Shown: in pieces, positions 25,314 to 53,768 of the stretch | Position numbering within the stretch: position 1 is the first letter of the stretch | Layout of the letters: every line of letters starts with the position of its first letter | Source of the DNA: a virus | Direction: 5' to 3' (one strand) | Length of the DNA: 64,000 bases | Virus record (IMG/VR): IMGVR_UViG_3300022934_000004 | Program-made: the position numbers and the translations under genes | Notes under the pieces: model-generated | What the model was told of the DNA's origin: nothing | What the model saw: the letters and a program-made list of their open reading frames with translations, nothing else | Databases searched by the model: none

Positions 25314-27176
25314 ATGGCAACAACAGTTAGAAGCACAGCACTTGATTTCGATAGAATAAAGACAGCGTTAGCAAAGGATCTTGCGGCGAGTAACGAATTT
25401 CCTGACTTTGATTTCGAAGCAAGTGGTATCAGTAACATACTGGATGTCCTTGCGTATAATACTCATTTAAATGGTCTGATAGCAAACTTTGCTACGAATG
25501 AGAGTTTCATGCGCACTGCGCAACTCCGGTCTTCAATCGTATCAAGAGCAGAAGAACTTGGTTTGAATATTCGCAGTAACACAGCGTCCTCTGCAGTACT
25601 CCGTATATCAGTCAATCTATCGACTCTACCAGTTCTACCAACGACAATTAAACTACCACAATATACAGAATATACAGCAACACTTGATGGAGTTACATAT
25701 TCCTTCTATACTCTTGAGGAGTACACCGCAGAGAATAACGGACAAGGAATCTATACCTTCGAAAATGACTACGGAAATGGCGTAGGAGATGATACCGATT
25801 ATCAGATACCTGTCTATCAGGGTGATATTAAAACAAAGAATTTCTATGTAGGTACATCAGATGATTACCAAGTATATGTGATTCCTGATACTCAAATGGA
25901 TACTTCCAGTGCAAGAGTATATGTCTATGATACTCCTACCTCAAATTCTTATGAAGAATATACAAGTATTACAAAAGCGATTACAGTTAATTCGAGCTCG
26001 ACTTATTACGATCTCCGCGAGGCGCCTAACGGCGCCTATGAACTTACCTTCGGAGATGGACAGACCTACGGTAAAGCACCAAGTCCAGGATCAAAGATAG
26101 TCGTAACATATCTGAGACCAGATGGAGAAGATGCAAATGGGAGTGCAGACTTCTTTCCACAGAGTACTTTAACTTATTCAGGCGTGCAATTCGATCAGGG
26201 TGTTACAACATTCAGTAATTCAACAGGTGGAAGAAATAAACAAACGATCGAACAGATACGCCAAACAGCGCCGATCGCGTTTGCATCTCAACAAAGACTT
26301 GTAACTCCTGAAGATTATCAAGCACAGATTCTTTCAAACTTTTCTCAAGTTGATGAAGTCGCAGCGTGGGGTGGACAAGATAATATTCCTATTGACTATG
26401 GAAAGGTTTATTTAAGTCTTCAGTTTGATGATGGAACTGATGCAAATACGCAGACTCGTGTCAAAGCGAAGATTGTATCTGATCTAACAGATAAATTATC
26501 AGTAACATCAATCACACCGAAGTTTGTCGATCCAATAAATGTTTATCTTGAATGTACTGTTGATTTTAATTATGATCCAGATCTGACAGGACTCACTGCT
26601 GGTAACATGGCAACAAAGGTGACAAACATTGTTACCAATTACTTCAATACAATTGATGGATTTGAAAAAACATTCCGTCGATCAAATATGTTAACTACAA
26701 TTGATGAAGCCGAAGAAGCAATCCTTTCTTCAAAAGCGGATGTAAAAATGAGAATGAGATTTGAACCAGAGTTTGGATCTACCGCAACTTTTGCATACAC
26801 TATTAATTTTCCAGTTCCACTCGCAGAACCTGATGATGTAAATTATATCATACGGACAACAAACTTTGAGATTACAGGTGGAACAGCATATATCCGTAAT
26901 AAACTGAATAGTACTCAATTAGAACTCGTAAATGCAATAACGAATGAAGTTATTACTTCAAATGTTGGAGATTACTATGCTAAGAAAGGTGAGGTTTGGA
27001 TTTCAGAGATTACACCATTAAGTTCTTCTTCAGGTGGAACTTATATTGAAGTGAGAGCGACTCCATATAATCAATCAGTAATTAAACCTTTACGTAATTA
27101 TATTATTAAACTTGATAAATCCCGGCTTGTTACAAATGCTTTAAGAGATGATCAGAATACGAAAGTAACACTCTAA
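25314..27176 (+). CDS. gp6: Baseplate wedge gp6
   Basis: LDFDRIK, DFDFEASG..LDVLAYNTH, ESFMRTAQLRSS, QRLVTPEDY, YGKVYL. Confidence 0.92.
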   Translation: MATTVRSTALDFDRIKTALAKDLAASNEFPDFDFEASGISNILDVLAYNTHLNGLIANFATNESFMRTAQLRSSIVSRAEELGLNIRSNTASSAVLRISVNLSTLPVLPTTIKLPQYTEYTATLDGVTYSFYTLEEYTAENNGQGIYTFENDYGNGVGDDTDYQIPVYQGDIKTKNFYVGTSDDYQVYVIPDTQMDTSSARVYVYDTPTSNSYEEYTSITKAITVNSSSTYYDLREAPNGAYELTFGDGQTYGKAPSPGSKIVVTYLRPDGEDANGSADFFPQSTLTYSGVQFDQGVTTFSNSTGGRNKQTIEQIRQTAPIAFASQQRLVTPEDYQAQILSNFSQVDEVAAWGGQDNIPIDYGKVYLSLQFDDGTDANTQTRVKAKIVSDLTDKLSVTSITPKFVDPINVYLECTVDFNYDPDLTGLTAGNMATKVTNIVTNYFNTIDGFEKTFRRSNMLTTIDEAEEAILSSKADVKMRMRFEPEFGSTATFAYTINFPVPLAEPDDVNYIIRTTNFEITGGTAYIRNKLNSTQLELVNAITNEVITSNVGDYYAKKGEVWISEITPLSSSSGGTYIEVRATPYNQSVIKPLRNYIIKLDKSRLVTNALRDDQNTKVTL

Positions 27177-28138
27177 TGAAAACTCTTAGTGATTTAAATC
27201 GTTTACCAATTACTATGAAACGAAGTCTGGTAGGAGATGTCTTACCAGAATATTGGTCTTCTGAATATCCTAATCTAATTTCTTTCCTTGAAGCTTATTA
27301 TGATTTCTTAGATAGTGATGAGAATTTTGGTGAACTCATTGAAGATCTTTATACAATAAGAGATATTGAAGAAGCTACTCTTGATCAAATAGATTTAATG
27401 TTTAAAGAAATTGGTATGGGTGTTGCTCATACTCAGTTTACATCACCAAGAGAAGTGATAAGAAACTTTGGTAGATTCTTTCGAGTAAAAGGTACAGAAT
27501 ACAGCGCCGAAAATTTCTTCCGTGCATTCTTTAATGAAGACGCTTGGCTAGAATATCCTAAGCATAACTTATTTACAGTTGGTCAATCTACATTAGGTAT
27601 TGATGGATTAGATGTATTACAAGATGGTAAACTAAATCAGATTTTATCTGTTCTTGTAAAATCTCCAATCTCAATTGCAACATGGGGTAATTTATATCGA
27701 AAGCATGTTCATCCAGCTGGTTTTTATCTAGGCGCTGAAGTTTTAATCACAACTTTATTTGATGTAGGAGCATCAGCTCCAATTGTTGTTTTAGATTCTG
27801 ATGGCGAGGTTATAGTTGAAGAAGTTACAACCTTCTTATCACAAGGTGCAGAACAAGATCTAACTCTACTACAAACAATGGGCGCAACCATGTATGTATT
27901 AGATTCAATACAAAATAGATTAATATGGACAAACATGGATGGGCTGTACGAATATGATTCGAGTTATACAGATAGAAATGCAGATTCTACACAAGAAGTC
28001 TTTAATGTTAGACTTGATCCAAGTATTCAGATTAGAGGATATAAAGATATTGTAATATCTGATTTTGATAGTGATTATACATCTATTTATGATTTAATGG
28101 AAGCATCTTATGACTTTGAACCATCGGTTCGGGTATAA
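27176..28138 (+). CDS. gp7: Baseplate wedge gp7-like (short)
   Basis: FLEAYY, KGTEYS, HPAGF; position between gp6 and gp8. Confidence 0.7.
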   Translation: MKTLSDLNRLPITMKRSLVGDVLPEYWSSEYPNLISFLEAYYDFLDSDENFGELIEDLYTIRDIEEATLDQIDLMFKEIGMGVAHTQFTSPREVIRNFGRFFRVKGTEYSAENFFRAFFNEDAWLEYPKHNLFTVGQSTLGIDGLDVLQDGKLNQILSVLVKSPISIATWGNLYRKHVHPAGFYLGAEVLITTLFDVGASAPIVVLDSDGEVIVEEVTTFLSQGAEQDLTLLQTMGATMYVLDSIQNRLIWTNMDGLYEYDSSYTDRNADSTQEVFNVRLDPSIQIRGYKDIVISDFDSDYTSIYDLMEASYDFEPSVRV

Positions 28139-28141
28139 ATA
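28134..28141 (+). promoter_or_regulatory. Late promoter TATAAATA
   Basis: Exact consensus upstream of gp8. Confidence 0.78.
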
Positions 28142-28167
28142 ATAGAAAATAATTTAGGGCATAGAAA

Positions 28168-29526
28168 ATGGTAGCAGTAATAACAGATTATTTTAGAAGT
28201 AATATCGTCAGATATATTACTGATGGTATTAACGACTCCAGTGAGCATATGTACATTGGCCTAGGTAGATCTGAGTATTGGGATAGTACTGATACACCTC
28301 CTCCGCCAGTGAACACAGCAGAAGAAATTAAAAACTTTAGAGAAAGTTTACAAGCTGTAAAGAAAATCACTGACACATCTTATGTTGTTCCAAGAGTTAA
28401 TTGGACGACTGGCACAACTTATTCACAATGGGATGATACTCAAGCAGGTTATCCAACACCCAATTATTATGTGATGACTCAAAACTACGGAGTCTATATG
28501 TGTTTAAGAACTGGAAGAAATGATACAGGAGCAACTGTTCCTTCTATAGTAGAACCTTCCGGCTCAAATAACGATCCATTTGAAACTGCTGATGGATATG
28601 TTTGGAAATTCCTATTTACTATTTCTGCAATTGAAGCTAACTATTTCCTTTCTGCTAATTATATGCCCGTAAGCAGAATTGTCGGTGAGTTAGATTCAGA
28701 TGCGACTGGTATTCAATTAAAGCATAAAGAAATTCAAGATCAAGCTGTGCCCGGCATGATTTCTTCCATTGTTGTAACTGATGGTGGATCTGGATACTCT
28801 TCACCTCCTACTGTTACTATTACTGGTAACGGAACTACAGCAGCAGCAATTGCTACAATTGATTCTGCAACAGATTCTGGTAGAGTTGCTAAGATTGAAT
28901 TCCTAAACGATTCTTCTACTTTATTATATCCTTATGGGTATGATTATGGTCAAGTCACATTATCAGGTGGAGGCGGATCAGGTGCTGAAGCTAGATTAGT
29001 TATTTCACCTCCTCAAGGATTTGGAGCAGATGCGCCAAATGATTTAAGATCTTCTGGAATTATGATTCATACTAAAGTTTCTGGATCAGAAGAAGATTTT
29101 ATTGTTGTCCAAGATTTCCGTCAAGTTGGTCTAATAAGAAATCCTGTAAAAGGAGATGGAAGTGATTCAGACTTTACTGCAGACACAGGTAATGCATTAC
29201 AAGCTTTAAACTTATCATCTACAACAGTAGCCTTTAGTGTTGATAAAACAATTGTAGGTGGAACTTCAGGCACAAAGGCTTATATTGATGAAGTAGATTC
29301 AAATTTATTATATTATCATCAAAACTCTACAACTGGATATGGCACCTTTACATTAGGTGAAACAATAACAGAATCTGATGGTTCTGGTGAAGGAGTACTA
29401 GGATCTATCATAGATAGTTCAGAAGTCGATCCATTCTCTGGAGAAGTCCTATACATTGATAATAGAACAGCAGTTGAGAGAATGTCTAATCAAACAGAAG
29501 ATGTTAAAATCATTCTACAATTATAA
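28168..29526 (+). CDS. gp8: Baseplate wedge gp8
   Basis: VVPRVNW..G..Y, VYMCL, DGYVWKFLFTI, FRQVGLIRNP, SGEVLYIDNR. Confidence 0.9.
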   Translation: MVAVITDYFRSNIVRYITDGINDSSEHMYIGLGRSEYWDSTDTPPPPVNTAEEIKNFRESLQAVKKITDTSYVVPRVNWTTGTTYSQWDDTQAGYPTPNYYVMTQNYGVYMCLRTGRNDTGATVPSIVEPSGSNNDPFETADGYVWKFLFTISAIEANYFLSANYMPVSRIVGELDSDATGIQLKHKEIQDQAVPGMISSIVVTDGGSGYSSPPTVTITGNGTTAAAIATIDSATDSGRVAKIEFLNDSSTLLYPYGYDYGQVTLSGGGGSGAEARLVISPPQGFGADAPNDLRSSGIMIHTKVSGSEEDFIVVQDFRQVGLIRNPVKGDGSDSDFTADTGNALQALNLSSTTVAFSVDKTIVGGTSGTKAYIDEVDSNLLYYHQNSTTGYGTFTLGETITESDGSGEGVLGSIIDSSEVDPFSGEVLYIDNRTAVERMSNQTEDVKIILQL

Positions 29527-29537: not shown

Positions 29538-32500
29538 ATGACGATAAATTACACTGAAAAATTATTTGAAACTAGATACCGAGATGACTACGCGGATAGT
29601 AACGGGTTTGTTCGTATCTTATTCAACAATGGACGTCACTTACAAGCTAGAGAGTTAACACAATCTCAAACGATTATTCAAAAGCAATTGGAAAGATTCG
29701 GCCGCAATATTTTTAAAGAGGGCGCTGATGTTCTTCCTGGAGCAGTTGCTTTAAATAATAAGTATGAATTTGTAAAATTAGATGCTGGAGTTTACTCTGT
29801 TCCAGTTGATGGAAGCATTCTTGATGAAACATTTGTTGGTCAAAATTCAAATGTAAGAGTAAAAGTTTTAGAGCAAGTTGGGATTGAAGGATCTGATCCT
29901 CATACACTTTATGTAGAATATACCAATACGATAGGTGGAACAGTTAGTGATACTCCAATTAGATTAACACCTGGTGAAGATATTGTAGGTGTTTCTACTG
30001 GTACTATTTTAAGAGTACAAACAACAAACACAATTTCAAATCCAGCGGTTGGACAAGGCGTCAAGTTCTCCGTAGATGAGGGTTCCTTTTTCGTCAATGG
30101 TTTCTTTGTATTTGCGCCCAAACAAGAAATAATTATTCAAAAGTATAGCCCCATTTATACTGGTACTGTTGGATTTAAAGTTGTTCAAGACATTGTTACA
30201 GAAGATGATGATGAATCTCTTTATGATAACTCACAAAAACTTCCTAATACTACAGCACCTGGTGCAGATAGATTTAGAATTACATTAACTTTAATTGATG
30301 AAGCAAATACAAGTGCAACTGATACATTTGTTTATTTAGCTAAAGTAATAAATTCAAATGTTGTAGATGCTGTAACCGGATTTAATCAATATAATAAAAT
30401 AAATGACTTAATTGCTTTAAGAACAAAGGAAGAATCTGGAAACTATTTAGTGCGTCCATTTAAAATTTTGTATGATTCAGCAGATGCAACAAATCTAAAT
30501 TTAAATATTTCTGATGGCACAGCTTATGTTAATGGATATAGAGTTAATAAAGATTATCCTACAGAATTAGAAGTGCCTAGAGCTCAAGATACCGAGCAAT
30601 TAGAAAATGAAGTAGTTGCAAGTAACTTTGGAAACTATGTTATTGCAAGTACTTTAATAGGTTTACCTGATATATCCACATTTTCTGAAGTTAATTTAAG
30701 AGATAATGCTACTTATGGATCTGGATCTAATATAGGTACCGCTAGAATTAGATCTATTGACCGTGTTGGTGATGGTACTTATAGAATTTATCTATTTAAT
30801 ATTGCAATGTCTGGTGGTAATAATTTTAGAAACGTTAAATCTCTTGGAACTTCTTCAATTAATAATGCCACTTTATTATTAGAAAATAATTTAGCGGTAT
30901 TAAAAGAAGCAAATAATATAGATTTATTATTTCCTCTTCCACAAATTAGACCTTCTACAATTAATGACATATCATTAACAGTACAGAGAAAAATCAATGC
31001 TGTAACGGATGGTGCTGGAGCAGTTGATTTAACTTTATCAGCAGCAGGTGAAACCTGGGCAAGTACTTCTGATTGGATTACAGCAGTAGATTCTGATGGA
31101 GCTTTAGTCACTCCATCGATTTCAGGATCTGGTACTACGACAGCTTCTATTTCAGGCGCGCCATTTAATTCTAATTTAACACTTTTTGCTTATGTTAATA
31201 AAAGTGTTGGAACAGTTAAACAAAAGTTAATACAAGAAACTACTGGAAATCAAGGAAGCTTAAACACTGGTGGTAATGGAGAGCGTTACGTAGACCTTGC
31301 TGTTCCTGATGCTTTTCAAGTGAATTATATTAGACAAGATAGTGAAAACGGCGCAGACATTTCTGACCAATTTAACTTAGATACTGGCCAAAGAGATGCA
31401 TATTATGATATTTCTAGATTAGTGCTTAAAGGCGGTATTGCAGTACCAACAAATGTTTTCTGGTCAATTAAACATTTTCAGCACGCCACTTCAGGTGATT
31501 TCTTTGGAATTAATTCATACTCTTCATTAAGCTACACTGATATTCCATCATATACTAAACAAGATGGAACCGTAGTTGATTTAAGAAATGTTATGGATTT
31601 TCGTTCAGTTAAAAACGTTGGTGATACTTTTGTTGGCGGAACTGGACGAATTCATGAACTTCCAAAAAATACTGACGTTATTAATTCCGACATTACTTAT
31701 TATCTACCAAGATATGATAAAGTTATAGTTGATGAACAAGGAGAGTTATCTGTATTACAAGGTATTTCTTCTTTAACACCAAAGTTTAAAGAAGTTTCGC
31801 CAAATGCTTTAGAATTATATAGAGTTAAAATGAATCCATTTACTCTACATGATAGTGATATGGTAACTCAATTCATAGAAGCCAAAGGCTATACTATGAA
31901 AGACATTGGTTTAATAGAAAAAAGAGTAAACACTTTAGAAAAAGCTGTTAGTCTTTCATTACTTGAATTAGATACTAATGCATTAGAATTAATTGATTCA
32001 AATGGAACACCCAGAACTAAATCTGGATTTGCAGTAGATAACTTTACGAGTCATATTTTATCTGATACTACAAGTTCAGAATATAAAGCGTCAATTAATC
32101 CTAGTCAACAAACTTTAAATTCTGCATATGTTGAAAAAAATGTTGGATTAGTGTATGATTCTTCTTTATCGACTAATACTGTGTTAAAAGGCGATAATGT
32201 ATATGTAAAATATAATGAAACAAGTTATATTTCTCAACCTCAAGTTTCTAATACTCAAAGCGCCAATCCATTTACTACTTCTTTATATAATGGCACAGTG
32301 ATTTTATCAGGTGCTTCTGATGAACATAGAGATACAAAAACTCCAGCCACTGTAGTATTACAAGGGGGTGTAAGTTTAACGCCAAAACAAGAATTACTTT
32401 ATTCATTTAATGAATGGGGATGGAATGGTATTGATAGAAATTCTACTGTAACAACTAGAGTTGTAGAAAATGAAACAATTAGAGAAGTGGTTAATGATAG

Positions 32501-34478: not shown

Positions 34479-34479
34479 T

Positions 34480-34688: not shown

Positions 34689-34940
34689 ATGGCACGTCAA
34701 GTAAGAGTAGATTTAAGCGATCACTTTGAAGCATGGAGAGAAAAAACAAATCTTCTTTCTCAATATATGGGTGATTTAGATAGGTTAATTACACCAGAAG
34801 ATTCTGATCTTGTTGGTGCTATTAATTCTGCTTATACGTATAGACAGGACTATTATACTGACACGACTGTAGTTTTAGTTAATTCAGCTGGCAGTATAAT
34901 CAAAACAATGTATGTTTATGATAGTATTGGCGGCTTATAA
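34689..34940 (+). CDS. Short fibre/adaptor protein
   Basis: DLSDHFEAWREKTN; DSDLVGAIN. Confidence 0.65.
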   Translation: MARQVRVDLSDHFEAWREKTNLLSQYMGDLDRLITPEDSDLVGAINSAYTYRQDYYTDTTVVLVNSAGSIIKTMYVYDSIGGL

Positions 34941-34943
34941 ATA
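34936..34943 (+). promoter_or_regulatory. Late promoter TATAAATA
   Basis: Exact consensus. Confidence 0.75.
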
Positions 34944-34965
34944 AAGAATAAAATGGGCGGATTAG

Positions 34966-35214
34966 ATGGCAAGAAAAATTTACGTAGATTTAAGCGATAC
35001 AATCGACGCTTGGCGGGAGAAAACAAATATTCTTGGTGCGAATAGTGGTGACTTAGATAATTTAATCACTACTGCAGATTCTGACCTCGTGGCTGCTATT
35101 AATGAAGTTTATAATTTTCAACCAATACGGGATGAGAATTTGCGCATTAGAAGGGCTGATGGAACTATTGCAAAAGATTTATATGGCTTCACAGCAGATT
35201 CATCCGGTGGTTAA
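34966..35214 (+). CDS. Short fibre/adaptor protein (paralog of 34689)
   Basis: DLSDTIDAWREKTN; DSDLVAAIN. Confidence 0.65.
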   Translation: MARKIYVDLSDTIDAWREKTNILGANSGDLDNLITTADSDLVAAINEVYNFQPIRDENLRIRRADGTIAKDLYGFTADSSGG

Positions 35215-35219: not shown

Positions 35220-36215
35220 ATGGCAAGAAGAAGACCGCTTAGAATAGATGATAGCGACAACCTAATAGAAATGTCTCTTGATGACATGTTACAAGTTAGA
35301 AAACGTATAATTTCATTATACGGCGCCAATCCTTCTGTAACATTAGGTGTTGTTCCATCTGGTGGTAATTTACCAGGAGCTCCACTATATGATAGAAGAA
35401 CTGTTTCTGGTGGTGCTGTTTTAGCTGGAGATCCTCTTAAACCTTTAAGTACAATAGATGTTGCTTATAACAGAGTTGAACAATCAATAGAAGATTCTAG
35501 TACAACTCCAACTTGTCCTGATACAAATCTTAGAGGATTTCCAGTTTATTTAAATGACAGCGATCACATCCAGGCGATGACTGATTCCGATTTTTATGAT
35601 ACCTTTATGGATTCAGCTATTGAGACACTTACGCTTACTGGCTGGGCAGATAGTACTCAAGCTGGAACATATGTAGTATCAACTACTCAATTTGTAGAAG
35701 ATGCTGAACTTATATCAACTACTCCAATTTTTGTTAATACTATAGCAGATGTTGAAGCATTTGGAAGTGGCCCTTTGCCTGAAGATTCAGATCAGCCATT
35801 AGAATTAACTTCATACTATTTACATAGAATTAATCCAACTCGTGCAGAAAGTTTTAATTGTATTGTAATTGACGATTCAGATCATTTACAAGAATTAACA
35901 GATTCAGATTTCGATGAATGTCTTTCTAAATCTATTCGATATTCAGCCGCAAGGCGACCTTTAAATCAAATAAGATATGCATGGGATAGTGGTAATATTA
36001 GAACTACTGCTATTTTAGATACTGTTATCGATTCATCTGGTGGACCTGTTAGTGATTATGACGAATATGGTACATATGAAGTAGATTATGAGTACACTCA
36101 GTACGATTCTGCGTTACCATATATAATTAGAGAAGATGGAACATATCGTCAAATTGTTCCAAGTGGAAGAGAAGCAATTTATAGAAGATATTATTTGAAA
36201 ATACAAAAGGTGTAA
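35220..36215 (+). CDS. Putative virion protein, DS-rich (paralog of 42447)
   Basis: NPSVTL..V.SGGNL, GTY, YYLH, YYLK shared with 42447. Confidence 0.6.
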   Translation: MARRRPLRIDDSDNLIEMSLDDMLQVRKRIISLYGANPSVTLGVVPSGGNLPGAPLYDRRTVSGGAVLAGDPLKPLSTIDVAYNRVEQSIEDSSTTPTCPDTNLRGFPVYLNDSDHIQAMTDSDFYDTFMDSAIETLTLTGWADSTQAGTYVVSTTQFVEDAELISTTPIFVNTIADVEAFGSGPLPEDSDQPLELTSYYLHRINPTRAESFNCIVIDDSDHLQELTDSDFDECLSKSIRYSAARRPLNQIRYAWDSGNIRTTAILDTVIDSSGGPVSDYDEYGTYEVDYEYTQYDSALPYIIREDGTYRQIVPSGREAIYRRYYLKIQKV

Positions 36216-36221: not shown

Positions 36222-36689
36222 ATGGCAGTATTTAGTGGAAAGATTGTAGAAGCTAAATTCTTAGATCGTCAAAAAACAATGATAGAAATCTTATATAAAG
36301 ATGATGATAAAATTGTGGCGCATTCTATAGAAGTTGATTGGGAATTAAAAGATTTTCATGATTTATTAGAAGAAATGGATCTTGAAGATATTGAAAGACA
36401 AACAATCATTAGAAATCAAGATTTAGCGGAACAAAAGAAAGCAGCTGTAAAAGCGGGTGTTGAAGCAAGATTATCAGATGGATTTAAAGAAAAAGCTACT
36501 GCAATTGATGTTTTAATAAAAGAAGTAATTGCTAATAGACACGATGAAAGTTTCTTATTTAAATTTAAAGCAGAAATATTTAAAATGGAAGAAGTAAGTC
36601 TTTCTTATAAATGGTTTAAAAAAAGAAAAATTCAGAAATCTAAAGATGCATTAGAAATTTTAGCTATATTATATAAAATTATAAAGTGA
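36222..36689 (+). CDS. Hypothetical protein (possible fibre chaperone)
   Basis: Intact ORF in the late operon; function inferred from position only. Confidence 0.55.
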   Translation: MAVFSGKIVEAKFLDRQKTMIEILYKDDDKIVAHSIEVDWELKDFHDLLEEMDLEDIERQTIIRNQDLAEQKKAAVKAGVEARLSDGFKEKATAIDVLIKEVIANRHDESFLFKFKAEIFKMEEVSLSYKWFKKRKIQKSKDALEILAILYKIIK

Positions 36690-43865: not shown

Positions 43866-46800
43866 ATGGCTGAAATAACACTAACTTCTCAAGGCCGAAC
43901 AACTGTAGTTAAAAAGGTTATAATTGGAACTCCAGTTAGAAGAGTTACATCTGGTTCGTTTAGTATTTTTAATATTTCAGGTATTTCAGCTGTCGGATCT
44001 AGTCATAACGATCTTCTTGTTTTTGATTCATCTACTGGCAATTATGAAAATGAAAGTACGCTTCGTGTTTTAAAAGTAGATGATTTTACAATTGACAGTA
44101 ACTCAATAAGTGCTACTGGCGATATAAACATCTTTGCTACACAACTTAATATTTCAGCTCCAGTTGAAGCAACATCATTCAAGCAAACTCAATTAGGTGC
44201 TTTTGATGATTCTGATCTAACAAGTAAAATTTATGTAGACACTGAAGTTGAAAGAGTTAAACATGTTATTTTTACTACAGATGATGGATTTACAGATTCT
44301 GTTCAAATTTATAATGATGAAGATATAAAAGTAATTGGTGGAACTGGTCTTAAAACTTCTGCTACAAAAATTGGAACTCAATATCAATTAACAATTGATT
44401 TAGATAGTTCTGGTATAGTAACCGGAACTTATGGTACTGCTACTTCAGATGTTTCAGCTGATTTTTCTAAAGGCCAGCAGATTACATCAAGTAATTTGCA
44501 ACAAAATTTTGCAGGAGCTCCAAGTCAATCACAATTTAATAATGATGGTACTAAATGGTTTGTTATTGGAACTAATGGTTCTTTTGATGAAGAATTTGAA
44601 GAATGGGATTTAAGTACACCATACGATTTATCTACTGCTACATTTAGTCAAAGTGTATCAAGAGATATGGGCGGAGAAACAAACGGCGCCCAAGCGATGA
44701 CGTTTAACAATGATGGTACAAGCTTATTAGTTTTTGTAAGAAGACCAGGCGGGTCAAGCCCAAGAGCAATATCTTATACCTTTACATTAGGCACAGCATA
44801 TGATATAAGCACTTTATCTGCTGTACCTGGTAGTTTCAAATCCACAAATGATTATGGTGTAACAGGAACTGATAAAGGATATGCTTGGAATAATGATGGA
44901 ACTAAATTATTTGCGGTATCTCATACTCAAAATTTAGCTGTTATTGATGTTAGTACTCCTTATGATATTAGTACGCAAACATCATATAATGATTATCACC
45001 CAACAGATATTGATTCAAATATTACTGCAAATGCTCTGTGGGGTATAGCGTTTGATAATAATGGTTCAACTCTTTACTTGTTGGAAAGTAATGATACCAC
45101 AAATGAAATATTCAAACTAACATTATCGACACCATACGATGTAACTACTGCTACATTAGATGAAGTGTTGGATATTGATGAAACTAGTTCATATGATATA
45201 TCTTATCCAAAAAGTTTAGTAACAACGCCTGATCATCTAATTGTATATGGCACAACATCTGGAAGTGAACAATACACATATATTACTAAACCTTCAGGTG
45301 GCTCTGGCAATTATGGCCTTACAATACCTATTCTTCAATTTGATTCATCTGGAATATTATCTGGTGTTACAGTATCTGATCCTATTACAACAGATAATGT
45401 TAGAGAAGGCGACTCAAATTTATATTATACTACAGCTAGATTTGATGATAGATTAGACGATAGTAGTTCTATTTCAACTATACGTAGTATGTTCTCTCCT
45501 GGCGGAGATATGGTATATGATTCAATTAACGGTATCTTTTCAGTTAATGTTCTTGCTAGCTATAACTCAGAAAACTTTGATTCTGACTTAGATGATGCTT
45601 TAGCTAATAGTCAAAATATTGTATATAATGATTCATTAAATTCATTTGACTTAACTGCTATAAATGAATCGAATGCTGGTACATTTGGGTCAACAACTGA
45701 GGTTCCAATTCTTCATGTTGATTCATATGGTAGAATTGATAGTATTAGTACTGCTTCAATTTCATCAACATTGAGAATTAGTGCTGATAATTCAGCTGTT
45801 GCTATTCCTGCTGATACATCTATTGAATTTAATGCAGGAAAATACTTATCTGTATCCGCTGCAGATGCAGATAGTGCTTTTGGGCCAGATGGATGGTCGA
45901 TTGATTTTTGGTATAAAAAAGATTCAAACACTACAGCTGGCGGGACTGGAATGTTCCAAGATGGTATTATCAACCAGCACGGCCATTTTGTTATATTTGA
46001 TAACACAAATAATGGTGTTTCTACACTTGCTATTGCTGGTTCAAAAGATAACACTGGATCAAATTTTTGGTCGGCGAATACTAACACTGTAACAACAACA
46101 AACTGGAATCATTTCCATGTTGGTTATGATGGAACAACTGTTAGAGTATTCGTTAATGGAACATTAGATAATAGTGTAACCACTACATCTTATCATGGTC
46201 CCGTAACAGGAGGAACAGCACCTTTAAATATCGGCGCAAGATCTGGTGGCGTTGGCGCAACTGTAACAGAGGTTTTGGCTGGACAACTAGCAGATGTTCA
46301 CATACAAACAGGAACTGGTGGTGTTAAAACTAGTAACTTTAGTACTCCAACAGGAACACCTGGTGCAACAAGTAATTCTTTAATTCTATTATATGGCTCA
46401 AGTTCAGGTTGGCAAAATGCCACTTCTACTACAGTAACAGAAGCTGGAACTGGCAACGCTGTTACTACAAATACTCTACCATACACTGCAGGTTCTGCTA
46501 TTAGTAGTGGTGTAGATTCGATAAATCTTGGTACTGATTTTTTCAATATTTCAGGCCAACCTGATAATATCATTACAACAGTAACAGATAATGGTATTAA
46601 TATACGCTTAGATAGTGGTCAAACCTCACACAATTCTGTTTTAGGTGCAGTGCAGCCAGGATTATATACGTATGGTGGTGGGTCGTCTATTGCGCGAGTT
46701 TCAGTTAATGAGTTTGGTATTGTTAAACACATAGACGCAACTGACATTCAGGCGGAAATAACTCTTAAAAATGAAAATAATACAGAATATACAGCATTTA

Positions 46801-49800
46801 CTACACAAAATGACTTAAAGTTTGTAGGTGGGAACGGGATTGATGTTGATATTAGTGGCGGCTTTTCAGGTTTCGATATCAACGCTGATGCAGTAATTAC
46901 TGTTTCAATTGATTCATCTGAATTAAGTGCAATAGATAGTGTATCTTGGTTAACTGATTCTAATAAATTACAAATTAGTACTTCTGATGGAGCAAGATTT
47001 GTTCCACAAATTAATTACTTTGGTGATAGTGTAATTTACGACGATACACTTCGCATGAATACCTATAAATCCGCAGTTTGGGGTACAAAAGGAAATACTG
47101 AGCAAGGTGTATCTGGATCATTTAGTTCAATATTTATGATGCCAGGTGGTAATGAACAATTAGGCGGTTGGTGGTTCTATAATAATTCACCTGCAATGAA
47201 GTTTTATTCTAAGAGTAAAAATAGTCAAACAGGTGCTGATAAAGCTGGGTCCATTGAATTCCTGACTTATTATAACGATGGAAGTTCCTTTTACGAAGAT
47301 ATGATTGTCAGTAATGGGGTTGCGCTAAAGTATAAAGGTCGGCAAGCATTATCTATTATAGGGCCACAAAATGGCGCTAATGATAGCACGAATGTTACAA
47401 GGTTTTATTCCCATGCTATTCCTTATACTGGTTTGGGTGTAAACTATGATTTAGGTGATTCTGAAAACCCATGGAGAGATTTATATCTTTCTGGACAAAC
47501 AATACATTTAGGTGAAGTTCAACTAGCAGATAGCAATGGTGATTTTGCAATTAGATCTGCAGATGGATCTCCTGGTAATATAACAGCAGCTCATATAAGT
47601 GCTGATTCTGGTTATATTGGTCAATTCAGAGCAGATTCTGCACAAATTACTAATTATACTGCAACTACGGGATTTGTTGGACAATTAACGGTTGATTCTA
47701 TAAATGTAACAGATCTTAATATTAGTACAGCAATAGTAACAAATGGTCTTACAGCAGACTCAGCTAAAGTGCAAGGTACTTTAACTGTAAGAGATATAAA
47801 TGTAGATTCAGGATCTATTAGTCAATTTACAGCAGACTCAGCTTCAATTACTAATCTTAATGCTACAACAATATCCGGTGACTCTGCAACATTTACAAAC
47901 ATAGTAAGATCTGGAACAACTGTTACTGCCGGCACATATGGTTCAGCTTCAGAAGTTCCAATTCTTACAGTTGATTCTTCAGGTTTTGTTGATAGTATTG
48001 GATCAGTCTCAGTTGCAGGTGTAACAGCATTTGCATGGGATTCGGCAACTTCAACTGCTACAATTAGTACAGCTGATGGCGGATCTTATCCAGCAACTAT
48101 CAATGGTTTTCATAAAATCACAAGTCATTTAATACCATCAATTGCTAATACATACGATCTTGGTAACGATTCATATAGATGGAATGATCTCTATCTAAAT
48201 GGAACTAGTTTGTATCTTGGGGATACTATTATAGAAGATAGTGCTGGTGGCTTTGTCTTTATGCACAATGACGGTAGTGCAGCAAGCCCTGTAGGAGTTA
48301 CTGTACCAGAAACTAATTATATTACTTCGACACCACCTACAGGCGATACTAGTATCACCGCACAAAGAATGATATTTAATCCAACTGGTACGATATTACA
48401 GGTAGGTGGACTATATACACCTTTGACATATTATGATTTATCTACAGGTTGGGACTTAAGCACTGCAACTGTAGATCAAAATAATTCTTGGACAACTGGT
48501 GGTACTCCTTGGAGTGAAAATGTTAAGTTTGATACTGGAAGTCTAAGCTTTAATGCTGATGGTTCAAAAGTTTTCACTGGACGGTATAACAGTTCTATAG
48601 GCCAATTAGTATTACACGCCTATGACCTAGGCACAAATTACGTAATTGAAAGCGTAGGAAATAATCCTTCTCAATCCGTAAACGTTAATGTTACTTCATT
48701 AAATACAGCTTGGAATGACAACAAACCTGCTGGATGGGCGTTCAATTTCTATTCATCTGGTAGAGATTTTAAAGTAAGAGTTATTGATAGTGGTAATAAA
48801 ATTGCCATGTTTACGGGTGAAAGCAGTAGCTACTTAGACCTAATTGTTCTTCCTTTAACTACTCCTTATGACTTAAGTACTATTGACTATACTCCGGCCA
48901 ATGCAAAATGTTTTGATTTCGAATATGAATTAACAAATAATATTGTGCCAGGTAGATATGCTGATACGATAATTTACGGCGAAGATTTTCAATTTAGTAA
49001 CGACGGCACGAAGCTTTGGTTGACTGTTTATGACAGAGTTGGAGCTTCAAGTCCTTTTACTTATGAAATGGATTTCTATCAATTTGATTTATCTACTGCC
49101 TATGATATCGATCCAAGTAGCTTATCTTATAATAGTTCTGTAAGATTAGGAGAATCTGCTTCTTCTCCTTATTATAGATTAGGTGAAAGAATAGATGCTT
49201 TCCATGTAGAAGAGTCACAAAATAAAATATTCATGGTAGTAAGAAATGAATATTTAAATTCTGGTGGAAGTCAGTTGCTAGCAACTAGCGCAATTGTAGA
49301 ATTTAGTTATGGTAGCCCAGCAATTATGGCTCAAACTAAAATGGGTCATGTAAAAGCAGATTCAGCTCAAATTTCCTTACTAAACGCTGATTCAGGAACT
49401 ATTGGTCAATTTACAGCTGACTCAGCTTCAATTACTACACTAAATACTACAACCGGTAATATAAGTCAGTTTACATCAGATTCAGCTTCGATTACTAATT
49501 TAAATGTATCTACTCTTAATGCTCCAAGTTTAGATGTTGATTCAGCACACATTACTACACTTTCAACAAATAGATTTAATGTTGATTCTGCTAGAGCTGG
49601 ATTTATACAGTTTAATGTAGGCGAATATGATGATAACGTTAAACCTGCAACTACAGAAGGCGCAGTTTATTATAATTCTGGACCAGATACACTTGTCTTT
49701 AAATCTTCTTCTGGTGGTCCAATTAAAATTGGTCAAGAAGAAGTTACTAGAGTTTATAATAATACTGTTGCAACTATACCAAAAGGAAAGGCTGTTTATG

Positions 49801-52800
49801 TAACAGGAGCAGCAAATGATTTTCCAACTATTGCTTTATCTAGAGCAGATGATATATCCACTGTCTATAAAACAATAGGTATTACAAAAGATGATATATC
49901 ACCATCTTCTTTTGGTTTAGTAGTAAATCGAGGCTTATTTGGTGGAGTAGATACTACAGCATTTTCACCTGGTGATATTTTACATGTTTCTCCTGATAGC
50001 GCTGGAGAATTTGTTGCAACAAATCCCGTATATCCTAACTTTGCTTTCCAAGTTGGTACAGTTTTAGTTGTAGATTCTGCTGGAGGAAGTCCAGTAGGTG
50101 GATGTATACAAATTGAGATTGTAAGAGAAGTTTTTGAAACTATTAGAGTTACAGAAAATTCTAGATTTGATAATGATGTTACTGTTGGCGGAAACTTAAA
50201 TGTTCTTGGTACTGAAACAAGAACTTCAATTTCTAACTTAAATGTTGCTGATACTTTCATATATTTAGGTGGTGGTGACACTATTGGTGCTGGTGGAACA
50301 AACTTTAATGGTACTGGTGACCAAAACGCAACATATATTGGTCATTATAAAGGTGACAGCGACGAAACATTTAGAGTACGTATTTCTGGTGTTGGTGGTG
50401 ATACTCTTGAATGGGCACTTGATAGTTGGGGTGCAGGTACCTTAACATTCGATTCAGCTGGTGGTCCAACAACATGGAATTTAACTACTGATGGCTTAAT
50501 TGCACCTTTACGATATGGTATTTCAATTGATTTTGATGCAGCCACAGGCCATGATTTAGGAGATAGTTGGAGCGGAGATGCATCACCAATTAATGTTCAA
50601 ATTGGTCTTGCTGGTAACTATAATGAACCAGATGATATCTATCGCCATGCTGGCTTGTTTAGAGATGTTGCAGATGGTGTTTGGAAATTCTTTGATAATT
50701 ATGTTCCAGAGCCAGAAGGTCAAATAAACACTGCTGCGCCAACATTCTCTTTTGCAGATTTGAAAGCAAAAGATATTACTGGAGCTGCTATTGAAGCAAC
50801 TAATGGATTTACCGGTAATGTCACTGGTACAGTTTCAGATATATCTAATCATACTACTACAAATCTTGCCGAAGGTAATAACTTATATTATACATTAGCC
50901 AGAGATGATTCTGCCTTTGATGTTAGACTTGCAACTAAGTCTACAACAGACCTAACTGAAGGTAATAACTTATATTATACATTAGCTAGAGCAGATAGTG
51001 CTGCTCGTAGCGCTTTAAGTGTAGATGATCAAAGTGGTGATGGATCATTATCTTATGATTCAGCAACTGGTAAATTTACTTATATAGGACCTTCTCCAGC
51101 TGAGGTTAGAGCTCATCTTTCAGAAGGTAACGGAATCACTTATGATTCAGCTTTAGGCCAGATAACTATAACAGATACTGGAGTAGATTCAGGTACATAT
51201 GGTTCAAGTACTGAAATTCCTGTATTTACAGTAAATACTAGAGGTCAAATAGATTCAATTGGAACAGTTACTGTTGCAGGAGTCACTGGATTTGTATATG
51301 ATTCATCAAGTGGAAATCTAACTATTTCTACAGCAGATGGCGCAACTTTCAGTGATAGTATTAACTTAAATCCATTTACTACAAATGATCTAACTGAAGG
51401 TAGTAATAACCTTTATTATACTACAACAAGAGCAGATTCAGACTTTGATGTTAGACTTGGCATAGCAGGATCTATTGCTACTATTAGAAGTTATTTCTCA
51501 GCTAGTGGTGATTTATCATATGATTCCACTACTGGTGATTTTAGCTTCGATGTAGAACAAGTTTATACAAAAGCTAATTTTGATAGTGATCTAGGTGATG
51601 CACTAATCGGTGGAAAAGGAATATCTTACGATTCATCAACAGATACTATTAACATCGATTCTGCTGAATTCTCTGCAATGTTTACTACTACAGATTTACC
51701 AGAAGGTGATAATCTATACTACACATTAGCCAGAGTTGATTCGGCATTTGATGTCAGGCTTGCAACTAAGTCAACTACTGATTTAAGTGAAGGAAATAAT
51801 CTTTATTACACTAGAGCGAGATTTGATTCTGCTTTAGGCGATGCTACATCAACGGCTACTATTAGAAGTTATTTCTCAGCATCTGGTGACCTAACATATG
51901 ATTCTACTACTGGTGACTTCTCAATTGATGTAGAAGAAATTTATACCGCTGCTAATTTTGATTCTGATTTTAGAGTTAGATTATTAACTACTACAACTGA
52001 TTCAATTGGTGAAGGTACTACAAATCTTTATTACACTACAGCCCGCGCTGACTCAGACTTTGATGTTAGACTTGCAACTAAGTCTACAACAAACTTAACT
52101 GAAGGCGATAATCTATATTATACTACATCAAGAGCAGATTCAGACTTTGATGTTAGACTTGCAACTAAGTCTACAACAAACTTAACTGAAGGCGATAATC
52201 TATATTATACTCAGGCGCGTACTGATTCAGATATTATTTCTAGATTAAAAGATGTAAATGAATTTGATGCTGATTCAGTTGGTACTAGAGAATTAATTGT
52301 GGAAGCTGATGATTCTGCAGGTGATTTAACAATTAAAAATGGAATTATTCATAGAGAGTATCATGGAAGAACTGGTGGTGATAGTACATCTGAAAGAGTT
52401 AACATATATGTAAGAACAGCAGCAAAAACAAATACTCATAGATTCTATCAAATAGGATCAGCTGCAGCATATTGGTTATCTTATGATTCAGCTGACATAA
52501 ACACAGGAAGAGAAATTCAAGCTCCTCATTTAGATATGACTCCAGGTGTTAAATATAGATTCTGGACATTCCATTCATCTATGGCATCGCATGATGTAAG
52601 ATTTTATTATGAAAATGACAAATATCAAATATTAACTGATTCAAGTCCAGGTGTAGATATTACATATAACGGAGTAGCTGGCACTGCTGGAGCATATTCA
52701 GAAATTTTAGTTCATGATGGTGGTCCATCTTCTTTAGCATATCAATGTATTAATCACCCATATATGGGTAATCATTTTGCTTCAAATTCATTAGCACTCT

Positions 52801-52877
52801 CAAGATTATATCAAACTGACTCGGCTATTAATGTTGTTGGAAGATTAAATGCAACAATTGATGGAGGTACGTTCTAA
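43866..52877 (+). CDS. Giant tail fibre (3003 aa): shaft repeats, two beta-propellers, LamG domain, C-terminal cupredoxin-like domain
   Basis: TTxLxEGxNLYYTxAR repeats; FNNDGTK / LSTPYDL propeller repeats; WSIDFW..WNHFHVGYDG; YQCINHPYMG; terminal IDGGTF. Confidence 0.85.
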   Translation: MAEITLTSQGRTTVVKKVIIGTPVRRVTSGSFSIFNISGISAVGSSHNDLLVFDSSTGNYENESTLRVLKVDDFTIDSNSISATGDINIFATQLNISAPVEATSFKQTQLGAFDDSDLTSKIYVDTEVERVKHVIFTTDDGFTDSVQIYNDEDIKVIGGTGLKTSATKIGTQYQLTIDLDSSGIVTGTYGTATSDVSADFSKGQQITSSNLQQNFAGAPSQSQFNNDGTKWFVIGTNGSFDEEFEEWDLSTPYDLSTATFSQSVSRDMGGETNGAQAMTFNNDGTSLLVFVRRPGGSSPRAISYTFTLGTAYDISTLSAVPGSFKSTNDYGVTGTDKGYAWNNDGTKLFAVSHTQNLAVIDVSTPYDISTQTSYNDYHPTDIDSNITANALWGIAFDNNGSTLYLLESNDTTNEIFKLTLSTPYDVTTATLDEVLDIDETSSYDISYPKSLVTTPDHLIVYGTTSGSEQYTYITKPSGGSGNYGLTIPILQFDSSGILSGVTVSDPITTDNVREGDSNLYYTTARFDDRLDDSSSISTIRSMFSPGGDMVYDSINGIFSVNVLASYNSENFDSDLDDALANSQNIVYNDSLNSFDLTAINESNAGTFGSTTEVPILHVDSYGRIDSISTASISSTLRISADNSAVAIPADTSIEFNAGKYLSVSAADADSAFGPDGWSIDFWYKKDSNTTAGGTGMFQDGIINQHGHFVIFDNTNNGVSTLAIAGSKDNTGSNFWSANTNTVTTTNWNHFHVGYDGTTVRVFVNGTLDNSVTTTSYHGPVTGGTAPLNIGARSGGVGATVTEVLAGQLADVHIQTGTGGVKTSNFSTPTGTPGATSNSLILLYGSSSGWQNATSTTVTEAGTGNAVTTNTLPYTAGSAISSGVDSINLGTDFFNISGQPDNIITTVTDNGINIRLDSGQTSHNSVLGAVQPGLYTYGGGSSIARVSVNEFGIVKHIDATDIQAEITLKNENNTEYTAFTTQNDLKFVGGNGIDVDISGGFSGFDINADAVITVSIDSSELSAIDSVSWLTDSNKLQISTSDGARFVPQINYFGDSVIYDDTLRMNTYKSAVWGTKGNTEQGVSGSFSSIFMMPGGNEQLGGWWFYNNSPAMKFYSKSKNSQTGADKAGSIEFLTYYNDGSSFYEDMIVSNGVALKYKGRQALSIIGPQNGANDSTNVTRFYSHAIPYTGLGVNYDLGDSENPWRDLYLSGQTIHLGEVQLADSNGDFAIRSADGSPGNITAAHISADSGYIGQFRADSAQITNYTATTGFVGQLTVDSINVTDLNISTAIVTNGLTADSAKVQGTLTVRDINVDSGSISQFTADSASITNLNATTISGDSATFTNIVRSGTTVTAGTYGSASEVPILTVDSSGFVDSIGSVSVAGVTAFAWDSATSTATISTADGGSYPATINGFHKITSHLIPSIANTYDLGNDSYRWNDLYLNGTSLYLGDTIIEDSAGGFVFMHNDGSAASPVGVTVPETNYITSTPPTGDTSITAQRMIFNPTGTILQVGGLYTPLTYYDLSTGWDLSTATVDQNNSWTTGGTPWSENVKFDTGSLSFNADGSKVFTGRYNSSIGQLVLHAYDLGTNYVIESVGNNPSQSVNVNVTSLNTAWNDNKPAGWAFNFYSSGRDFKVRVIDSGNKIAMFTGESSSYLDLIVLPLTTPYDLSTIDYTPANAKCFDFEYELTNNIVPGRYADTIIYGEDFQFSNDGTKLWLTVYDRVGASSPFTYEMDFYQFDLSTAYDIDPSSLSYNSSVRLGESASSPYYRLGERIDAFHVEESQNKIFMVVRNEYLNSGGSQLLATSAIVEFSYGSPAIMAQTKMGHVKADSAQISLLNADSGTIGQFTADSASITTLNTTTGNISQFTSDSASITNLNVSTLNAPSLDVDSAHITTLSTNRFNVDSARAGFIQFNVGEYDDNVKPATTEGAVYYNSGPDTLVFKSSSGGPIKIGQEEVTRVYNNTVATIPKGKAVYVTGAANDFPTIALSRADDISTVYKTIGITKDDISPSSFGLVVNRGLFGGVDTTAFSPGDILHVSPDSAGEFVATNPVYPNFAFQVGTVLVVDSAGGSPVGGCIQIEIVREVFETIRVTENSRFDNDVTVGGNLNVLGTETRTSISNLNVADTFIYLGGGDTIGAGGTNFNGTGDQNATYIGHYKGDSDETFRVRISGVGGDTLEWALDSWGAGTLTFDSAGGPTTWNLTTDGLIAPLRYGISIDFDAATGHDLGDSWSGDASPINVQIGLAGNYNEPDDIYRHAGLFRDVADGVWKFFDNYVPEPEGQINTAAPTFSFADLKAKDITGAAIEATNGFTGNVTGTVSDISNHTTTNLAEGNNLYYTLARDDSAFDVRLATKSTTDLTEGNNLYYTLARADSAARSALSVDDQSGDGSLSYDSATGKFTYIGPSPAEVRAHLSEGNGITYDSALGQITITDTGVDSGTYGSSTEIPVFTVNTRGQIDSIGTVTVAGVTGFVYDSSSGNLTISTADGATFSDSINLNPFTTNDLTEGSNNLYYTTTRADSDFDVRLGIAGSIATIRSYFSASGDLSYDSTTGDFSFDVEQVYTKANFDSDLGDALIGGKGISYDSSTDTINIDSAEFSAMFTTTDLPEGDNLYYTLARVDSAFDVRLATKSTTDLSEGNNLYYTRARFDSALGDATSTATIRSYFSASGDLTYDSTTGDFSIDVEEIYTAANFDSDFRVRLLTTTTDSIGEGTTNLYYTTARADSDFDVRLATKSTTNLTEGDNLYYTTSRADSDFDVRLATKSTTNLTEGDNLYYTQARTDSDIISRLKDVNEFDADSVGTRELIVEADDSAGDLTIKNGIIHREYHGRTGGDSTSERVNIYVRTAAKTNTHRFYQIGSAAAYWLSYDSADINTGREIQAPHLDMTPGVKYRFWTFHSSMASHDVRFYYENDKYQILTDSSPGVDITYNGVAGTAGAYSEILVHDGGPSSLAYQCINHPYMGNHFASNSLALSRLYQTDSAINVVGRLNATIDGGTF
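52053..52211 (+). repeat. 72-bp exact direct repeat, 87-bp period (29-aa fibre repeat)
   Basis: 52053-52124 is identical to 52140-52211. Confidence 0.9.
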
Positions 52878-52880
52878 GCG

Positions 52881-52888
52881 TATAAATA
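52881..52888 (+). promoter_or_regulatory. Late promoter TATAAATA
   Basis: Exact consensus. Confidence 0.78.
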
Positions 52889-52940
52889 GACTAAAGTCGA
52901 GTTTTTACTCATATATGGCTTCCTTTATTAAGGTGTAACT

Positions 52941-53768
52941 ATGGCAGCAAATATTAAATTAAAAAGATCCTCAGTTTCGGGGAAACAACCTTTAGTAGGT
53001 GATATTGATTATGGGGAGTTAGCATTAAACTATGCTGACGGTATTCTCTATTACAAAAATAATACAGATGTAATATCATCAATATCAGGTGGCGGCGCTG
53101 AAACTGATAGTGCAGCACCCTCTGGCGCTAGTTTAAGAGATGGCCAGTTTTGGTGGGATGCTACAAACGGAAGACTTAAAATTTATTATGATGATGGTGC
53201 TGATTCTGCTCAATGGGTAGATGCATCACCTGCCGGTAAAGGTTACACTGGTTCAGCTGGCGCAATTTCATTTAGTGAAACAGCACCAACAAATCCTTCA
53301 GATGGTCAAATCTGGTATAATTCACAAACAGGAAAATCATATCTTTATTACGAAAATCAAGGTAATAGAGCATGGATTTTATTTGCAGATCCAACTGTAA
53401 CTGATGGTGACACTGGTTTTACTGGATCTGTAGGCTATGTTGGCTCACAAGGAACAATTTCACCTAGAATGATTTCACTTCTTAACCCATCAGGTGGTCA
53501 AGAAATAACTTTACTTAGAACTTCAACTGCAATATCAATTTCAGAAGTAAGAGCTGTAATTAGAGGAAGTAGTTGTGAATATGCAATAAAATATGATACT
53601 GATAGGAGTGCAGCTGGAACTACAATCGCAACAGAAACAACTACTAATACAACTACAGGATCAACTCCTGTAATTTCTAATGCTTCTGTTCCTGCTGGAA
53701 ATTATATTTGGTTAGAAATTGTTTCTGTAAACAGTTTAACTGAAATTTCAGTAAATGTTACGTTTTAA
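52941..53768 (+). CDS. Fibre protein with Mtd-N/hyaluronidase-N-like domain
   Basis: IKLKRSSVSGKQP..GELALNYADGILY; GQFWWD/GQIWYN repeats; short GxT collagen. Confidence 0.7.
   Translation: MAANIKLKRSSVSGKQPLVGDIDYGELALNYADGILYYKNNTDVISSISGGGAETDSAAPSGASLRDGQFWWDATNGRLKIYYDDGADSAQWVDASPAGKGYTGSAGAISFSETAPTNPSDGQIWYNSQTGKSYLYYENQGNRAWILFADPTVTDGDTGFTGSVGYVGSQGTISPRMISLLNPSGGQEITLLRTSTAISISEVRAVIRGSSCEYAIKYDTDRSAAGTTIATETTTNTTTGSTPVISNASVPAGNYIWLEIVSVNSLTEISVNVTF

Follow-up and report, generated by a model that had tools for sequence, protein, structure and literature searches.

Phage-encoded glycosyltransferases (GTs) that place glycans on structural proteins are described for the mycobacteriophages Che8 and Rita (PMC11256854, PMC12619734). 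In pelagimyophages, a GT8-rich variable island between VrlC and gp14, the host recognition cluster, is interpreted as a means of modifying the host O-chain (PMC7029224). Among bacteria, the O-glycosylation system of Bacteroidota uses the sequon D-(S/T)-(L/I/V/T/A/S/M) (PMC12871550), and Aeromonas Maf1, a predicted cytoplasmic protein, has been implicated in O-glycosylation of Ser/Thr with a cytidine monophosphate (CMP)-activated sugar as the donor (PMC3426422). The subject of the present analysis is a 64,000-nucleotide stretch of viral DNA (IMG/VR record IMGVR_UViG_3300022934_000004; hereinafter, the window), in which the region of interest contains the baseplate and fibre genes of an uncultured marine T4-like phage (35% GC). 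In the outer baseplate and fibre proteins of the respective phage lineage, the triplet Asp-Ser-(Ala/Asp) occurs five to seven times above chance, and we propose that it is most likely a sequon for glycosylation of the virion by phage-encoded enzymes.

Asp-Ser pairs in baseplate and fibre proteins

The observed number of Asp-Ser (DS) pairs in each protein was compared with the number expected from the amino acid composition of that protein; all ratios below are observed/expected. Phage C48C1 is the best cultured match for gp8 and VrlC, with ~34% identity. Open reading frames (ORFs) are denoted by their first position, and lengths are given in amino acids (aa).

25314..27176, + strand: gp6, inner baseplate wedge protein, negative control (DS 0/3.6)
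27176..28138, + strand: gp7-like wedge protein with 6 DS (6/2.3), five of them in the C-terminal third
28168..29526, + strand: gp8, baseplate wedge protein with 9 DS (9/3.6; phrog_438, E 4e-85)
29538..34478, + strand: VrlC (DUF4815) baseplate protein, not enriched (9/10.0; the tblastn match in phage Mosig is annotated VrlC)
34689..35214, + strand: two small paralogous proteins of 82-83 aa, 2 DS each
35220..36215, + strand: 331-aa protein of an unknown family, probably structural, with 12 DS, 8 of them DS[AD] (12/3.3, p 5e-5)
41791..42444, + strand: 217-aa virion structural protein with 10 DS, 8 of them DS[AD] (10/3.5, p 1e-3; phrog_6002, phrog_697)
42447..43427, + strand: 326-aa paralogue of 35220, family F5, internal control, not enriched (1/2.6)
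43866..52877, + strand: 3003-aa fibre-like structural protein (DS 77/29.4, p ~1e-15; DS[AD] 34 vs 4.7; phrog_697)
55111..60390, + strand: 1759-aa structural protein, weakly enriched (DS 20/13, DS[AD] 8/2.0)

An earlier, sequence-only reading of positions 27176-53768 had called DS pervasive in the outer virion proteins. Its counts are correct (gp7 6, gp8 9, 35220 12, 41791 10, gp6 0, gp32 0, and 77 in the fibre, where it gave about 75), as are its Ser codon ratios (TCN:AGY of 8:4 in 35220 and 8:2 in 41791), and DS indeed exceeds the compositional expectation in 35220, 41791 and the fibre, where it ranks first among the 400 dipeptides. The motif is enriched in several outer proteins but VrlC, 42447 and ORF 52941 (2/2.1) are flat, so that "selective" is a better description than "pervasive". 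DS ranks second in gp8 and seventh in gp7; the excess in these two proteins is not significant singly but becomes significant when pooled across genomes, with 139/59 for gp7 across the DS-rich loci, and for gp8, 365/166 in the clade defined below vs 70/66 in the outgroup. Homologues of the two 82-83 aa proteins in this clade are longer and DS-rich (97/32 and 102/22). The first 2300 aa of the fibre, ahead of most of its LYYT repeats, already show 50/21. The excess is confined to the coding frame, gp32 has none (0/2.1), and weaker enrichment extends beyond position 53768, to the 1759-aa protein and ORF 63251 (4/1.0).

Adjacent to the weakly enriched 1759-aa protein, at 60394-62769, lies a gene for a 791-aa, nearly DS-free protein with dozens of collagen-like G-Y/F-T-G-S-K/R-G-D repeats. 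In clade members L037, L040, L044, L050, L063 and L065, VrlC is encoded by two ORFs (~1230-1370 and 520 aa). Genomes G007 and G001 (L199; L205-L206) contain long tandem arrays of paralogous virion-like genes of 380-550 aa after the fibres; those of G007 are DS-rich, whereas most of those of G001 are not.

The motif across related phages

For comparative analysis, 80 viral contigs were anchored on VrlC and a FastTree tree was built, in which the clade comprises 52 loci and the outgroup 33 loci. All 29 DS-rich loci fall inside this one clade of 52 (support 0.99), and none of the 33 outgroup loci is DS-rich. The motif pools consist of virion-like proteins and include related sequences, so that the ratios are to be read as effect sizes rather than as independent p-values. 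In the clade pool, the total DS count is 1731/848, and the excess depends on the third residue: DSA 480/67, DSD 368/68, DSS 235/86, DSN 126/56 and DSG 147/79, with hydrophobic third residues at or below expectation (DSL 37/57, DSV 42/55, DSI 61/55). The ES pair is at 238/381, so Glu is not accepted in place of Asp, and NS (567/745), DT (677/942), TS, NSA and DTA are not enriched either. The window itself shows the same preferences (DSA 39/5, DSD 28/6; DT not enriched, 57/75), and the outgroup pool shows none (DSA 25/32, DSD 16/24). By these counts, the motif is D-S followed by a small or acidic residue (A>D>S/N/G). Two cyanophage controls lack it (DS[AD] 5/6.6 and 4/9.3), and one of these, S-SCSM2R, encodes 13 GTs (PMC12801897).

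The positions of the motif turn over. In gp8, 28 DS-rich alignment rows carry ~9 sites each, spread over 59 columns, with one site nearly fixed; at the ten common sites, DS is present in 187 cases, D only in 36, S only in 46, and neither in 199. In the outgroup, the columns that correspond to the DS serines of gp8 have more gaps (0.31 vs 0.08) and fewer hydrophobic residues (0.03 vs 0.30), which we use as an alignment-based proxy for exposed loops. The alignment of gp8 to solved structures is too weak for placing the DS sites. The outgroup homologues have DS at only 11 of the 377 aligned window sites, and homologues of 35220 retain a helix capping box without DS, hence the folds do not need DS. 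The inner wedge protein gp6 is depleted of DS clade-wide (31/77 in the DS-rich loci and 17/35 in the other clade loci, vs 40/41 in the outgroup). Taken at the sequence level, these observations support the view that D and S are selected together, as one motif, at sites that are variable and polar.

A Maf/CstII-fold gene tracks the motif

A second GT cluster precedes the window. A weak PF01973 match in the nearest long relative led to a 201-aa ORF that closes such a cluster; the counterpart in the present phage, preceded by two GT25 genes and a GT-A gene, was located on contigs that are 99.94-99.99% identical to the window start.

L315:5651-6262, ~3.3-4.0 kb before window base 1: Maf/CstII-fold gene, at the end of the second GT cluster
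1..5499, + strand: downstream stretch of the second glycan-building cluster, with sulfotransferase-like 399 (motif recognised by eye only), radical S-adenosylmethionine (SAM) 1141, carbamoyltransferase 2374 and GDSL-like 4549 (Pfam)

The PF01973 score of the Maf-like gene is far under the cut-off (11.8 vs 34.6 bits), and the assignment is based on a structural model of the G007 orthologue, to which the L315 protein is 63.5% identical. The best match of this model (predicted local distance difference test score, pLDDT, 91) is the Maf structure 5MU5 (Z 11.8, root-mean-square deviation 3.3, 164 aligned residues), followed by a Campylobacter sialyltransferase; the model also matches 2P56 with Z 9.6. 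The Foldseek probability is 0.96-0.98 but with E ~1e-3, and the fold is also common to pyrophosphokinases, which are not GTs (Z 7-9).

The Maf-like gene was found in G001, G002, G006, G007, G012 and C48C1; in each of these, one or more virion proteins are rich in DS or DS[AD]. In a first-look search, it was not found in the complete DS-poor genomes of Mosig and G003. A comparison with 50,697 cultured phage records yielded two matches, C48C1 and DSL-LC06. Thirteen gp8 sequences chosen solely because their contig carries the Maf-like gene have DS at 99/42 (p 4e-6 vs the outgroup). The Maf-like gene tracks the DS motif best, better than the five GTs of the window. The adjoining GT-A gene tracks it less well, with no match in G006, G046, C48C1 and three complete siphoviruses. 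A distant Maf-like lineage, P0198, is represented on short contigs only. NeuB was detected in none of 14 genomes, and a CMP-transferase (PF02348) in two of the 14, several of these genomes being incomplete.

DSL-LC06 is an unrelated 30-kb siphovirus. In its family, the Maf-like gene lies directly before the virion genes, and DSA, often as DSAG, recurs in the capsid, tail tube, Dit and hub proteins of the carriers. Sixteen siphovirus loci for which a strong Maf-like match is present, either within the locus or in another part of the contig, show DSA at 89/23, compared with 7/7 for six loci with only a distant match; the association is limited by L232, which has a weak match yet is enriched (5/1.4). 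About a quarter of the DSL-LC06 genome (L193:1732-9017), directly before the virion genes, consists of genes for GTs, methyltransferases and a sialyltransferase-like protein.

The genes at 1141-5499 and 9027-9785 of the window encode a radical SAM/SPASM protein, the carbamoyltransferase, two similar ORFs (one GDSL-like) and a PhyH dioxygenase, possibly a glycan- or protein-tailoring set. In several phages, a gene for a PnrA/Bmp nucleoside-binding ABC protein lies within the second GT cluster (L121:3338-4393, L130:6725-7780), and the T4-like contig L229:806-11763 carries AOX, rps21, a distant Maf-like gene and a GT29 gene. Elsewhere in the window, a sulfotransferase gene (PF03567, above the cut-off) is located at 16082-16621 on the - strand, between the core virion-assembly genes 16618 and 15493, and a 519-aa gene product with a C-terminal Amidase_2 domain is encoded at 21124-22683, adjoining gp5-like genes.

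The five GT-A genes and their cassette

The five GT-like genes with a DxD motif that the sequence-only reading had placed among the DS-rich genes are present (36699, 38074, 38753, 40151 and 41053). They form a cassette with a companion ORF and two methyltransferase-like genes.

36222..36689, + strand: 155-aa conserved companion ORF, family F7
36699..37448, + strand: GT-A glycosyltransferase, GT8-like, paralogue 1 (PF01501 E 1.7e-4, below cut-off; DLD motif)
37439..38089, + strand: class I SAM methyltransferase-like ORF, paralogue of 39534 (E 3e-10)
38074..38769, + strand: GT-A glycosyltransferase, paralogue 2, 38% identical to 38753
38753..39547, + strand: GT-A glycosyltransferase, paralogue 3 (AlphaFold2 model, pLDDT 80)
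39534..40154, + strand: second SAM methyltransferase-like ORF, paralogue of 37439
40151..41053, + strand: GT-A, GT8-like glycosyltransferase (GT8-bearing atlas clusters, template modelling (TM) score 0.90)
41053..41766, + strand: GT-A glycosyltransferase, distantly related to the three paralogues and present in DS-poor phages, too

Of these, 36699, 38074 and 38753 are paralogues, and 40151 and 41053 are more distant. The five proteins yield only sub-threshold matches in Pfam and PHROGs, the best being that of 36699, which alone matches PF01501 (21.7 bits vs the curated cut-off of 24.3), but the GT-A fold and the DxD motif are confirmed by the invariant D123/D125 and by Foldseek matches to GT-A enzymes. 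A Foldseek search started with the model of 38753 identifies, as the top match, the capsid GT of the virus PBCV-1 (2p6w, E 2.7e-7), followed by XXYLT1, GlyE and LgtC, the latter two of which also match at the profile level; no tblastn match to 38753 was found among cultured phages. The orthologue of 40151 in the DS-poor phage Mosig is 34% identical (E 7e-42). For 37439, the nearest named atlas cluster is Methyltransf_31, a name carried by 21% of its members, which is a lead only.

The 155-aa ORF is found in 35 loci, in DS-rich and DS-poor phages alike. It usually lies between a 35220/42447-type or long fibre-like gene, which it directly follows, and the GT cassette, and its product might act as an adaptor or chaperone that connects the cassette with the protein encoded ahead of it. 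In L027, its counterpart is a longer form of 377 aa. Related cassettes occupy the same place in the DS-poor Mosig and in seven further DS-poor loci (L015, L046, L067, L075, L082, L085, L091), with the 155-aa ORF, related GTs and, usually, a methyltransferase. Instead of these GTs, a different GT-A, mostly together with a 2-oxoglutarate (2OG)-oxygenase-like gene, is present in five loci that are DS-rich or intermediate. A minimal cassette (L047:13148-14979; L031, L032, L045; C48C1 L102:650-2530), usually located after a long repeat-rich fibre-like protein, consists of the 155-aa ORF, one GT-A gene and one 2OG-Fe(II) oxygenase-like gene, the latter assigned by eye; this composition suggests a hydroxylate-then-glycosylate module acting on a non-DS target. 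Joint loss of cassette and motif was considered for L093 and rejected, given that the cassette and a DS-rich fibre (43/16) are found further downstream; L056, L071 and L024 are too short to judge such loss. A search for a different motif in the DS-poor cassette carriers showed only a modest SG excess, which is also seen in some DS-rich loci.

Competing explanations and the favoured reading

The sequence pattern itself, that is, the motif, its clade limits, its turnover, the depletion in gp6, the enzyme folds and the co-occurrence, is well supported. It might be explained without any covalent modification if DS were a pair of residues, characteristic of this lineage, that forms Asx/ST-turns or helix starts or binds Ca/Mg, and that was spread by expansion of repeats and common descent. 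Such an origin would fit the turn residues (GS, AS, TS, NG, DG) that outgroup homologues have at the DS sites, the occurrence of DS also at helix starts, the eight of nine fibre LYYT repeats that are followed by DS, and the single clade origin. Turns and caps, however, usually accept N, D, S and T, and a plain turn preference should raise NS or DT, neither of which is raised; nor are NSA and DTA. Furthermore, the 35220-type homologues keep their capping box without DS, the same triplet recurs across unrelated folds and also in the unrelated siphovirus family, gp6 is depleted, and the fibre is enriched already ahead of its repeat region, all of which makes a purely structural motif unlikely, albeit far from negligible. 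The sequence-only reading itself assigned both the recognition of DS and the construction of the coat to the five GT-A genes located between VrlC and the fibres, a proposal that gains some appeal from their late-region position, from the structural proximity of 38753 to the PBCV-1 capsid GT A064R and GlyE, and from the presence of some GT-A beside the 155-aa ORF in every DS-rich locus with enough flank. We nevertheless consider it improbable: cassettes of this kind are present in eight DS-poor outgroup loci, the 38753 family has four matches in Mosig but none in the DS-rich G040 (complete), G037 and G001, and no cassette GT type is common to all DS-rich phages, so that these GTs are neither needed nor sufficient for the motif.

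A DS sequon could also direct a modification other than a sugar, such as Asp beta-hydroxylation by 2OG-Fe(II) oxygenases with a role in metal binding, sulfation, carbamoylation, or isoaspartate formation by methyltransferases. The region does encode a PhyH dioxygenase, a sulfotransferase, a carbamoyltransferase and two methyltransferases, and the cassette of some relatives consists of one GT-A and one 2OG-oxygenase-like gene; the methyltransferase and carbamoyltransferase families are, however, also present in DS-poor phages, and Mosig, despite several genes annotated as Asp hydroxylase-like, is DS-poor, which leaves this explanation quite improbable. Modification of the virion by an O-glycosylation system of a Bacteroidota-type host, which the Asp before Ser and the intolerance to Glu bring to mind (PMC12871550), appears extremely improbable, given that this system acts on proteins outside the cytoplasm, accepts Thr almost as often as Ser and favours L/I/V as the next residue, whereas in the phage clade DT falls short of expectation and DSL, DSV and DSI stay at or under it.

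The reading that we favour, with a probability of roughly 0.55, is that D-S-(A/D/S/N/G) is a sequon for phage-made glycosylation of the virion. The sequence would be recognised for enzymatic modification of the outward-facing baseplate and fibre proteins, most likely by O-glycosylation of Ser by phage-encoded cytoplasmic enzymes; virion proteins assemble in the cytoplasm. Under this scheme, the small Maf/CstII-fold transferase would read the sequon and add the first sugar from a CMP-activated donor, and the variable GT-A, GT25, methyl-, sulfo- and carbamoyltransferases, including the five GTs of the window, would extend and decorate the glycan or act on other targets. Because no NeuB was found, the donor may be a host sugar, perhaps, as a guess, CMP-3-deoxy-D-manno-oct-2-ulosonic acid (CMP-Kdo). 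The particle would thereby acquire, at the end that contacts the host, a dense and probably acidic coat. Sequon-directed glycosylation with the Maf-like enzyme as the initiator is a more tentative proposition, somewhat short of even odds, and the same caution attaches to its fullest form, in which a minimal Maf/CstII-fold enzyme reads D-S-(A/D) and starts an acidic glycan at anywhere from tens to hundreds of positions on the virion, the enzyme and the motif being paired in both T4-like myoviruses and small siphoviruses. What stands of the original proposal of O-glycosylation at DS is that DS acts as a selected pair and that the cluster encodes GT-A enzymes, one of them nearest to a viral capsid GT; the five GTs as readers of DS and the Bacteroidota sequon do not.

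Several observations weigh against the glycosylation reading. In the T4-like phages, the motif and the Maf-like gene share one origin, and so count as a single event. G002 and C48C1 have the Maf-like gene yet their baseplates are DS-poor, and the siphovirus carriers L233 (3/2.3), L270 (3/1.7) and L292 (3/1.6) are not enriched. Total DS is barely raised in the siphoviruses, and no complete siphovirus relative that lacks the gene was found, the contigs stopping before the position of the gene. The absence calls for the Maf-like gene come from a first-look search of limited sensitivity, and many DS sites lie in turns, helix starts and fibre repeats. Finally, the Maf-like protein has only the size of a catalytic domain, and known Maf enzymes have no reported sequon (PMC12871550).

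Implications

The GT islands of marine T4-like phages are usually read, without test, as altering the host surface or the phage DNA. If the proposed glycosylation is real, part of these islands would be reassigned from remodelling of host lipopolysaccharide to self-decoration, and a widespread phage lineage would be sugar-coated at its host-contacting end, with a bearing on adsorption, particle sticking and decay. It would also represent a cytoplasmic, sequon-directed O-glycosylation system of the bacterial type, and an enzyme of 200 aa able to modify, in the cytoplasm, a tag of three residues would be of use in glycoengineering. The combination of a readable sequon, a candidate initiating enzyme and the cultured carriers C48C1 and DSL-LC06 makes the question directly testable. 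Virion glycosylation as such is already known in mycobacteriophages and chloroviruses, and the GT island is already published. In the literature searched, outside of which most subscription journals fall, we found no paper on the DS motif or on a phage Maf-like enzyme acting on virions, and no description of phage C48C1.

Comparison with known systems

The top structural match of 38753, the GT domain of PBCV-1 A064R (2P6W, TM 0.54/0.67), is only 14% identical to it. In PBCV-1, a eukaryotic virus, the glycans are attached through N-linkages, and A064R acts in elongation. The mycobacteriophages resemble the present phage, with its two GT clusters, in encoding GTs of their own, but their glycans are on the C-termini of capsid and tail-tube proteins; the candidate sites considered here are many, internal to baseplate and fibre proteins of a T4-like myovirus, and defined by a three-residue motif. 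The five GTs of the window lie exactly where the pelagimyophage host recognition cluster is located, and the gene order matches, but the available part of the published account does not mention a DS motif (PMC7029224) and the cultured pelagimyophage Mosig shows no DS enrichment.

The Bacteroidota system, in which transfer is lipid-linked and takes place in the periplasm, shares with the phage motif the need for Asp before the hydroxy residue and the intolerance to Glu, as indicated here by the lack of ES enrichment. The analogy to a Bacteroidetes D-(S/T)-X sequon drawn in the sequence-only reading breaks down on the use of Thr and on the third residue: because DT is not enriched and the third residue is A/D/S rather than hydrophobic, the phage motif is not the Bacteroidota sequon, and its substrates would be cytoplasmic. 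The phage Maf-like enzyme is predicted to share the catalytic fold of Maf (5MU5 from Magnetospirillum) and of the CstII/GT42 sialyltransferases. The phage protein differs from Maf in its size (201-203 aa vs 632 aa), in the lack of NeuB from the 14 phage genomes, and in its proposed substrates, which would be virion proteins with a sequon, whereas no sequon is known for flagellin.

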